47,511 nt of DNA from Escherichia phage ECO95 1-6-1. Of this stretch, positions 41,797 through 42,502 are shown one piece after another. The DNA lies in sequence record OR845258. One strand, 5' to 3'. Within the stretch, counting starts at the first letter, position 1. Every line of letters starts with the position of its first letter. Below the pieces are notes generated by a model. The model worked only from the letters and a program-made list of their open reading frames with translations. It had not been told where the DNA came from and searched no databases. Made by a program: the position numbers and the translations under genes.

Positions 41797-41966
41797 ACGC
41801 TGAGCAATTCATCGAAAAACAACTTCGTGACAAGCTGCCTGACATTGACCAGATGGCAATTGATGCGGCAATCCAGTATTACAAGCGAAACCAGAGCACT
41901 AAGAAGGGTGGCATTTTTGAGGAATGCCTAAAGGTTGCAAAACAACACATGATTAAGGTGAAGTGA
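41793..41966 (+). CDS. hypothetical protein (about 57 aa)
   Basis: ATG at M5 of the track ORF; ATGA overlap with the upstream stop. Confidence 0.4.
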   Translation: MNAEQFIEKQLRDKLPDIDQMAIDAAIQYYKRNQSTKKGGIFEECLKVAKQHMIKVK

Positions 41967-42502
41967 TGAAACTAAAAATCAGCAAACTATTACTTGAGTC
42001 AGCATTGATATTTCAGGCTCGTAATGATGTGCGATACTACCTGAACGGCATCTGCTTTATGACTGATGGTCGCATTGCGTCAACTGACGGCCATCGTGCA
42101 TTCATTGGCGGAGTCCATGATAATAAGCTGACGGAAAATGTGATTATCAAGATTGGCAAGTCACCAACAAAGCGCTATGAGCACGCCATCATTGATACCG
42201 GGTCGAAAATTGCAACGTATCATGATGAAGCTGGCGCGATGGTTGGCGCTGGTATCTGCGAAGAGATTGATGGTCGATTCCCCGATATTGACCGCGTGAT
42301 ACCAAAGGAAACGAAAGCAGCAGAGGAAATAGGATTCAATACTGGCTACCTTGTTGATATTGAGAAAGTGGCGAAGCTGTTTAATCCTAAATTCTGTGGT
42401 GTCAAATTTGAACTGAATGGAAATACAAATGCAGCAGTTTGCTGCCTTAGTGCGCCATCTGGCGAGACTGCGAAGATTGTTGTTATGCCGATGCGTCTGT
42501 AG
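41966..42502 (+). CDS. truncated DnaN (beta sliding clamp)-like protein retaining the clamp's protein-binding cleft motifs
   Basis: 178 aa. NDVRYYLNG...STDGHR, DGRFPD..RVIPK, EIGFNTGY and exact C-terminus VVMPMRL correspond to E. coli beta-clamp domain II/III motifs (HQDVRYYLNG, ATDGHR, DGRFPDYRRVLPK, EIGFNVSY, VVMPMRL); no domain I equivalent; AAGGTG RBS; phage terminator downstream. Confidence 0.6.
   Translation: MKLKISKLLLESALIFQARNDVRYYLNGICFMTDGRIASTDGHRAFIGGVHDNKLTENVIIKIGKSPTKRYEHAIIDTGSKIATYHDEAGAMVGAGICEEIDGRFPDIDRVIPKETKAAEEIGFNTGYLVDIEKVAKLFNPKFCGVKFELNGNTNAAVCCLSAPSGETAKIVVMPMRL

Follow-up and report, generated by a model that had tools for sequence, protein, structure and literature searches.

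The window analysed here is the whole stretch of 47,511 nucleotides of sequence record OR845258, from Escherichia phage ECO95 1-6-1, and it represents a Skatevirus-like siphophage genome. On its plus strand we examined a gene for a 178-residue protein (19.5 kDa, pI 7.6) homologous to the bacterial beta sliding clamp DnaN, which we call the mini-clamp. Its ATG at 41966 is shared with the stop of an upstream 61-residue gene (TGATG overlap), an AAGGTG Shine-Dalgarno sequence lies 5′ of this ATG, and the stop codon occupies 42500-42502. The original prediction, made from the letters alone, was of a truncated phage clamp which keeps the protein-binding cleft and lacks domain I. The open reading frame (ORF) of 178 codons does exist with all the motifs quoted for it: NDVRYYLNG at residues 20-28, STDGHR at 39-44, DGRFPDIDRVIPK at 102-114, EIGFNTGY at 121-128 and the C-terminal VVMPMRL at 172-178. 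The gene and its parts are the following.

41966..42502, plus strand: mini beta-clamp coding sequence, stop codon included.
41966..42316, plus strand: residues 1-117, equivalent of DnaN domain II (E. coli ~126-253), from the profile, the model and the pairwise alignment.
42026..42049, plus strand: DVRYYLNG, residues 21-28, with subsite I residues R23 (R152 of E. coli) and L26 (L155), both invariant in the 88-sequence alignment.
42083..42100, plus strand: TDGHRA, residues 40-45, with T40, G42, H43 and R44 for T172, G174, H175 and R176, and A45 for L177.
42269..42304, plus strand: DGRFPDIDRVIP, residues 102-113, with P106, R110 and V111 for P242, R246 and V247; interdomain connector.
42317..42499, plus strand: residues 118-178, second half of domain III (E. 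coli ~313-366), from the profile and the model.
42329..42349, plus strand: IGFNTGY, residues 122-128, with subsite II residues N125 and Y128 for N320 and Y323.
42479..42499, plus strand: VVMPMRL, residues 172-178, the C-terminal strand lining the cleft, with V172, M174, P175, M176 and R177 for V360, M362, P363, M364 and R365.

The relationship to DnaN goes well beyond chance. A phmmer search of the PDB returned beta clamps only, among them those of Enterobacter cloacae (6amq, E 5.2e-14) and E. coli (1mmi, E 2.6e-13), and the alignment fell into two stretches, query 7-154 on DnaN 136-289 and query 118-178 on DnaN 313-366. A hidden Markov model (HMM) of the family scored 106.5 bits against E. 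coli DnaN, whose reference sequence had been checked against 1mmi (810.9 bits over residues 1-366). Scores for curated families were lower: 18.5 bits (E 0.0025, single-sequence search) for PF02767 and 16.1 bits (E 0.01) for PF02768, each with a cut-off of 27, and 37.2 bits for TIGR00663 with a cut-off of 137.65. Such values below threshold are expected because the mini-clamp is a fragment. The Pfam scan of the mini-clamp gave no match to PF00712.

The structure prediction agrees with the DnaN homology. AlphaFold2, supplied with an alignment of 88 sequences, produced a confident single-chain model with a predicted local distance difference test (pLDDT) value of 94.6 and a predicted template modelling score of 0.89. 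It superseded an earlier run with 28 sequences, all at least 70% identical, in which pLDDT was 61 and the C-terminal half was poor. Among the 50 best PDB matches listed by Foldseek nearly all were the E. coli clamp and the remainder were other bacterial clamps, so the predicted fold is the DNA-clamp fold of DnaN.

Which parts of the clamp are kept could be read from the scores of the family HMM against separate parts of DnaN. Domain II gave 78.5 bits and the second half of domain III (310-366) gave 22.0, against 3.9 for its first half (251-312). In the model, residues 118-178 form one beta-alpha-beta-beta-beta unit, with a helix at 126-139 and strands at 148-151, 157-162 and 168-173. At the place of the second inner helix of E. 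coli domain II there is a loop of nine residues (64-72) between strands 59-63 and 73-77, and longer family members bear an insert at this point. Altogether the model contains two helices and about 11 strands, which is not a whole number of clamp domains. Domain I has no counterpart, nor does the stretch of E. coli residues 251-312 with I272/L273, which is the first half of domain III. The protein therefore has neither the three tandem domains of DnaN (~366 residues, curated score) nor the surfaces of domains I and III that form the head-to-tail dimer. A normal head-to-tail ring is implausible, since the parts that carry the dimer interface are absent, and no clamp loader was found among the scanned ORFs of the window, which comprised the replication-module and larger structural ORFs.

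In these respects, truncation without domain I and part of domain III and the improbability of a ring, the original prediction was borne out by the part scores and the alignment. It also held that the EIGFN and KFxGV elements appear swapped in order relative to DnaN, and here it did not stand. The KFxGV text is real, but it is specific to one clade and not conserved in the family, and the C-terminal unit is collinear with the second half of domain III (22.0 bits versus 3.9), so we rejected a circular permutation. The apparent swap is best explained by the similarity of the two halves of a clamp domain, both of which are beta-alpha-beta-beta-beta units. A longer, three-domain protein masked by a wrong start or frame was likewise rejected: the start codon is coupled to the stop of the gene before it, the relatives all begin with MKLK, and a different conserved gene sits upstream.

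What remains of the clamp is mainly its peptide-binding cleft between domains II and III. Subsite I of this cleft is built in E. coli by R152, L155, T172, G174, H175, R176, L177, P242, R246, V247, V360 and M362, and subsite II by H175, N320, Y323, V344, M362, P363, M364 and R365 (PMC11139829). All the segments that build it are present in the mini-clamp, as had been predicted, and at 16 of the 18 cleft positions it has the residue of E. coli beta, compared with 44 of the other 151 aligned positions (29%). The two mismatches are L177, which is replaced by alanine (A45), and V344; the latter, together with G174, is one of two cleft positions which the 2024 review called non-conserved (PMC11139829).

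The same residues stand out when the family is compared with itself. Our alignment contained 88 sequences, metagenomic and phage homologues of the Skatevirus and Dhillonvirus EP23 proteins, with a mean column identity of 27%. Invariant columns were R23, Y24, Y25, L26, G42, G103, P106 and R177, and near-invariant ones V22, T40, D41, H43, R44, F105, D107, R110, Y128 (kept in 98% of members), M174 and P175. Among the 20 best-conserved columns, 13 belong to the cleft (hypergeometric p = 3e-11), with the remaining seven directly adjoining these. No second surface was conserved family-wide in this alignment, which suggests a single interface shared by the family. As nothing but the cleft is conserved throughout, selection would appear to act mainly on the pocket. 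One natural variant was seen beside the cleft: the mini-clamp of phage Skate (locus L001, 20694-21230) carries a Y25C change, reading RYCLNG where RYYLNG is otherwise invariant.

The mini-clamp belongs to a large family of phage proteins, PHROG 3007, whose profile it matches with E 2.7e-61 (residues 1-178 against positions 1-186 of 190). It shares with this family the length (~165-230 residues), the boundaries from the start of domain II to a terminal (M)P(M)R, and the context in tailed phages and prophages, either in an early or replication operon or as a lone gene of the head module. By tblastn we found it in at least 301 phage records, with hosts including Salmonella, Escherichia, Vibrio, Klebsiella, Acinetobacter, Burkholderia, Proteus, Pseudomonas, Pantoea and Campylobacter, and a pattern scan of IMG/VR yielded at least 399 confirmed loci. 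The BFVD contains many viral models of 163-250 residues with the same fold (template modelling score 0.8-0.9), for example from phages Pantoea LIET2, Serratia Rovert, Burkholderia AH2 and BcepNazgul.

The original prediction knew of no phage clamp with such an architecture, and this claim of novelty was wrong. Gp15 of Bcep781, 31.7% identical to the mini-clamp over residues 3-177, is annotated as 'DNA Pol III b subunit fragment'. The GenBank name of the family is "DNA Pol III beta (fragment)", and hundreds of GenBank records contain an annotated member. Five short phage homologues of PolIII-beta were reported by Kazlauskas & Venclovas in 2011 and described as spanning 'the second and third domains' (PMC3201878). 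In length class, boundaries and conserved motifs the mini-clamp shows no essential difference from PHROG 3007 and these short homologues, and the profile scores and the model narrow their span to domain II with one half of domain III. With some two decades of annotation behind the family and its mention in 2011, the object is not new, and its value lies in an unexplored mechanism. The role of stand-alone PolIII-beta homologues in viruses without a polymerase was raised as a question in 2016 (Kazlauskas et al., PMC4889955), and our literature searches brought up no functional study of short phage beta-clamp homologues.

A second name has been attached to these proteins. PHROGs, and then RefSeq, label the family 'RusA-like Holliday junction resolvase', and this label stood in every RefSeq (NC_) phage record that we examined, including NC_054639, NC_054641, NC_016566 and NC_004333. 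By neither sequence nor structure does the mini-clamp belong to the RusA fold or sequence family (PF05866), and the RusA label of PHROG 3007 is an annotation error.

It is useful to compare the position of the gene across relatives, where four classes of context were distinguished.

Class a, Skate-like: ParB-like gene 5′ and capsid gene 3′ of the mini-clamp; 29 IMG/VR loci.
Class b, lambdoid: CI/cII, then the mini-clamp, then replication genes, with Q downstream; 14 loci.
Class c, prophages and metagenomic phages: the mini-clamp heads the operon; 8 IMG/VR loci and the Salmonella prophages L004 and L005.
Class d, lone gene on the opposite strand in the head module: Dhillonvirus EP23 (L002, 5998-6510), Bcep781 (L012, 6998-7579) and five further loci (L075, L077, L083, L092 and L094).

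In class b the mini-clamps are 46-59% identical to the query, and the replication genes are O with lambda P, O with a DnaB-like helicase, or an O-like gene with a DnaC-like loader. Lambdoid replication modules of this kind depend on host Pol III. The operon of class c encodes a DUF2800 PD-(D/E)XK nuclease, a single-stranded DNA-binding protein (SSB) of T7 gp2.5/Enc34 type and a family-A polymerase, with a Prim-Pol helicase near. The family therefore occurs with three or more unrelated strategies of replication, of which two lack a phage polymerase. It cannot serve as a marker of polymerase-less phages, an idea that we rejected since EP23, which encodes a 1062-residue PolA-like protein, and many prophages carry a family-A PolA.

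Several other features of these contexts may be mentioned. The opposite-strand placement in the head module is repeated in three unrelated groups, Skatevirus, Dhillonvirus and the Bcep781 myoviruses, and there the mini-clamp looks like an insertion with its own transcription; lambdoid and PolA-type phages instead have it at the head of the replication operon. The DUF2800 nuclease and the gp2.5/Enc34-type SSB of the PolA-type modules share closely similar acidic tails with a hydrophobic last residue, which end in ...DDFDDVSDDALAADLI and ...DDFDDISEGADADALI in L004 (10205-11506 and 11521-12069) and in ...NFEDLV and ...ADADDLA in L010 (8778-10175 and 10405-10953); the likeness of these tails suggests that nuclease and SSB dock on a common partner. 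Between SSB and PolA the otherwise identical Salmonella prophages differ, one and the same place being taken by a SIR2_2 protein or by an Nmad5 (nucleotide-modification-associated) one (L004 12181-13662 versus L005 12120-12758). In EP23 an Nmad5 gene (L002, 6592-7356) lies directly 3′ of the mini-clamp.

Purifying selection maintains the mini-clamp in the polymerase-less Skate-like clade, where the ratio of nonsynonymous to synonymous substitution rates (dN/dS) is 0.08-0.10 (the window against Skate, Klebsiella phage 6991 and STGO-35-1). The gene is nevertheless non-essential in the laboratory. In a viable clone, 'Mutant Salmonella phage seszw clone seszw_250L', codons ~9-154 are gone and only the first ~8 and the last ~24 remain, the wild-type seszw protein being 92% identical to that of the window. 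This clone comes from a CRISPR genome-reduction study in which genes absent from isolated mutants were classed as non-essential (PMC9825161). Because this deletion mutant is viable, the mini-clamp cannot be an indispensable connection with host Pol III.

The lack of a DNA polymerase, which the original prediction had noted, was confirmed for families A, B and C. We scanned 20 large ORFs against PHROGs and 10 of these also against Pfam, including all ORFs of at least 240 residues on the replication-module strand and the large structural ORFs. The only polymerase-like domain was the Prim-Pol (AEP) of the primase-helicase. The replication module (16.5-24.2 kb) encodes this primase-helicase, a Sak4-like ATPase, a Gam-like protein, SSB and an SF2 helicase, and two of its genes bear on the present question.

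16561..18894, plus strand: fusion of Prim-Pol (AEP), PriCT_2 and DUF3987 (D5-like helicase), 777 residues.
20937..21518, plus strand: phage SSB (phrog_9002), C-terminus ...PPMDFDSDVPF.

The tail of E. coli SSB, MDFDDDIPF, docks chi, PriA, RecQ, ExoI and other host proteins. From its resemblance to this tail, the phage SSB may recruit host replisome factors and would then be another site, besides the mini-clamp, at which the phage touches host replisome proteins. The proteins of the phage were also scanned for the clamp-binding motif (CBM), with the canonical regular expression Q[LIVM]x[LIVM][FLWYM] and its hexapeptide form, and none was found in the replication proteins of this phage or in the co-occurring PolAs. 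The sole matches were buried or structured, QMHLSL in the helix-turn-helix of ParB and an ORF with QVSLF, so that phage-encoded CBM ligands were rejected as candidates.

The mini-clamp is the last gene of a plus-strand operon which converges on the major capsid gene. At the nucleotide level the surrounding 2.5 kb have an identity of ~91-93% with Salmonella phages KFSST1, KFS-SE2 and Skate, Escherichia phages swi2 and C1, and Shigella phages DS8 and Sf11. The neighbouring features are the following.

39551..41796, plus strand: rest of the putative early operon, on the opposite strand within the structural-gene region.
39551-39579, plus strand: sigma-70-like promoter of the operon.
39603-40244, plus strand: 213-residue gene of the operon.
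40428-40628, plus strand: 66-residue gene of the operon.
40625-41434, plus strand: gene for a ParB/KorB-like DNA-binding protein.
41431-41796, plus strand: gene for a 121-residue CxxC...CxxC protein.
41781..41966, plus strand: 61-residue gene of the function-unknown family phrog_4439, translationally coupled to the mini-clamp by TGATG.
42509..42531: bidirectional hairpin terminator with a 10-bp stem, closing the plus-strand operon and the convergent capsid-side transcript.

The coupling of the 61-residue gene to the mini-clamp recurs in Klebsiella phage 6991 and Salmonella phage STGO-35-1, and the annotation of phage Skate carries the same terminator as 42509-42531. The 121-residue ORF has a zinc-ribbon-like pattern with weak matches to phrog_19515 and phrog_7314, and it is an insertion relative to Skate and seszw, where a short spacer comes after the ParB-like gene. 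PADLOC gave no defence-system match for the mini-clamp gene or its operon. Three further features of the genome were recorded.

5212-5850, minus strand: HNH endonuclease (phrog_99), adjoining a head morphogenesis gene.
35966-36631, plus strand: Ant-like anti-repressor homologue (phrog_63, E 9e-57), in the tail region of this apparently virulent phage.
37039-37115, plus strand: tRNA gene with anticodon CAT among the tail genes, tRNA-Met according to ARAGORN and annotated as tRNA-Ile in the Skate homologue; it may be of the lysidine-modified Ile2 type.

Several known proteins can be set beside the mini-clamp. Bacterial DnaN (PF02767/PF02768, TIGR00663; 1MMI) has 366 residues against its 178. Relative to it the mini-clamp is without domain I, the first half of domain III, both dimer-interface surfaces and one inner helix; it is also below the family cut-offs, phage-encoded, deletable and not predicted to form a ring. 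The E. coli beta* form (Skaliter, Paz-Elizur and Livneh, JBC 1996) is reportedly a UV-induced product of an internal dnaN start, with domains II and III and a trimeric ring clamp. The likeness is that of an N-terminally truncated clamp starting near residue 135, at the domain I/II boundary, with the cleft retained. However, beta* keeps all of domain III, and the mini-clamp is without the half-domain needed for such an interface; it does not have the complete domains II and III of a trimeric six-domain ring. Herpesvirus UL42, a monomer, and UL44, a C-shaped dimer, each comprise two full domains with a basic face for binding DNA and always occur with a cognate polymerase (PMC4889955). In contrast, the mini-clamp is neutral and has one and a half domains, and this phage has no polymerase, so none of the marks of that type is present. 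Gp168 of Staphylococcus phage Twort (PDB 7EVP) also targets the CBM pocket of the clamp during the takeover of host replication, but it mimics the ligand and blocks the host pocket, whereas in the mini-clamp it would be the pocket that is imitated and the ligands that are caught. The two are not homologous.

With the ring-forming parts lost and the pocket retained, binding of CBMs off the DNA is the most economical reading. We tentatively propose, from sequence and predicted structure, that the mini-clamp is an accessory clamp fragment which does not encircle DNA and which may compete for host CBMs. Domain II minus its second DNA-facing helix, joined to the second half of domain III, would build the hydrophobic pocket for the CBM (consensus QL[SD]LF). 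The protein would be made early, alongside the replication genes, and off the DNA it would act as a soluble receptor with a single pocket. Candidate clients are Pol III alpha and epsilon, delta, Hda, Pol II/IV/V, MutS/L, ligase and Pol I. By competing for them with the host beta ring it might shift the traffic of replication and repair toward phage DNA synthesis, and in an accessory role it would improve fitness in nature and not be required for laboratory plaques.

Homology, fold, architecture, the selective conservation of the cleft, gene contexts, purifying selection and dispensability are shown by the data above; that the pocket binds peptides, that these belong to the host rather than the phage and that the effect is competitive are points which we infer. 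A host ligand is favoured because the pocket is host-identical and unchanged across diverse hosts and replication modules, because no canonical CBM occurs in the replication proteins of this phage or in the co-occurring PolAs, and because two context classes rely on host Pol III. The ligand common to unrelated modules and varied proteobacterial hosts is most simply a host CBM, and an unchanged, host-identical pocket would fit a ligand with which the phage cannot co-evolve. Such a pocket mimic, a stand-alone cleft capturing host CBMs, would either draw competing clients (Hda, translesion polymerases, MutS/L) selectively off the host clamps or pass Pol III to phage replisomes; we hold this to be possible, with somewhat more doubt than confidence. 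Several points weigh against a competitor for host CBMs. The cleft is also the most conserved part of cellular DnaN, so the pattern could in part be an inherited folding constraint. An effective sponge would compete for Pol III alpha and delta as well, which a polymerase-less phage needs, and a decoy with one interface leaves unexplained the frequent position at the head of replication operons and the adjacency to PolA. Finally, loss of the first half of domain III leaves its packing surface exposed, and through this surface the protein may self-associate or bind a partner.

A rather unlikely alternative is that the mini-clamp is an adaptor in a hybrid replisome. Its cleft would hold a host CBM protein, most plausibly the Pol III core via alpha/epsilon, or Pol I or ligase for Okazaki fragment maturation, and a second, lineage-specific surface would bind a phage replication protein (e.g., O, the Prim-Pol helicase or SSB), so that host enzymes are concentrated at phage forks. 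The position at the head of the replication operon leans toward such an adaptor, as temperate-like relatives place the gene first in the replication block, directly 5′ of O/P or of nuclease-SSB-PolA. The host-like tail of SSB makes a theme of host-factor recruitment plausible, and the surface bared by the loss of half of domain III could be the second interface. However, no second surface is conserved across the family, no partner gene is consistently adjacent, and in Skatevirus, Dhillonvirus and Bcep781 the gene lies in the head module away from replication genes. The link is not essential, as the deletion mutant is viable, and a single pocket off the DNA cannot confer processivity. The lack of a second conserved surface together with dispensability leans instead toward a modulator or sponge. 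Decoy and adaptor, both raised as possibilities in the original prediction, would each agree with the conservation pattern and the gene contexts. We consider it improbable that the mini-clamp is an accessory or processivity subunit of a phage enzyme in the manner of UL42/UL44, contacting DNA as a monomer or open dimer with its cleft on a non-canonical phage tail of PolA, the gp2.5-type SSB or the DUF2800 nuclease. The Skate-like phages would then have kept it after loss of the polymerase, but both the window and the lambdoid clade, without polymerase, keep the same pocket under purifying selection. The PolAs contain no CBM-like motif, one DNA-facing helix is lost and the protein is neutral, not basic; a host-identical pocket is not expected for a fast-evolving phage ligand.

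Two further explanations have little in their favour. A true sliding clamp of more subunits (e.g., a tetramer or hexamer), or one into which host beta also enters, similar to beta*, would accord with an N-terminus placed exactly at the domain I/II boundary, as in beta*, and with the modular nature of the clamp fold. It is very improbable, since two helices and three sheets do not add up to complete clamp domains, one inner helix and the first half of domain III with its far interface edge are absent, the scanned ORFs included no clamp loader, and no edge-strand residues are conserved in the family. That the gene is a decaying, functionless remnant of a captured host dnaN is scarcely credible, although it can be deleted in the laboratory and Kazlauskas & Venclovas assumed such homologues to be horizontally acquired and dispensable (PMC3201878). 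A remnant would not be expected to show the low dN/dS, domain boundaries constant in all the phage genomes and IMG/VR loci of many host groups counted above, cleft residues invariant despite a mean identity of 27%, and a confidently predicted fold.

In bacterial replication and repair the beta-clamp cleft serves as the central docking site, and antibiotics are aimed at it. That a widespread family of phage proteins keeps little but this cleft, and is selected across lambdoid, Skate-like and PolA-type phages, suggests manipulation of the client network. The analysis also exposes the RusA mislabelling of PHROG 3007 in RefSeq. With this family the question asked by Kazlauskas et al. in 2016 becomes testable, as the protein is small, predicted to fold and deletable, and a clear biochemical prediction can be made for it. 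If the proposal of CBM capture is true, pocket mimicry would take over the clamp hub in an undescribed manner, the reverse of that of ligand mimics of the Gp168 type, and the mini-clamp would be a natural monomeric 20-kDa scaffold with the cleft only, useful in screening for beta-clamp inhibitors.

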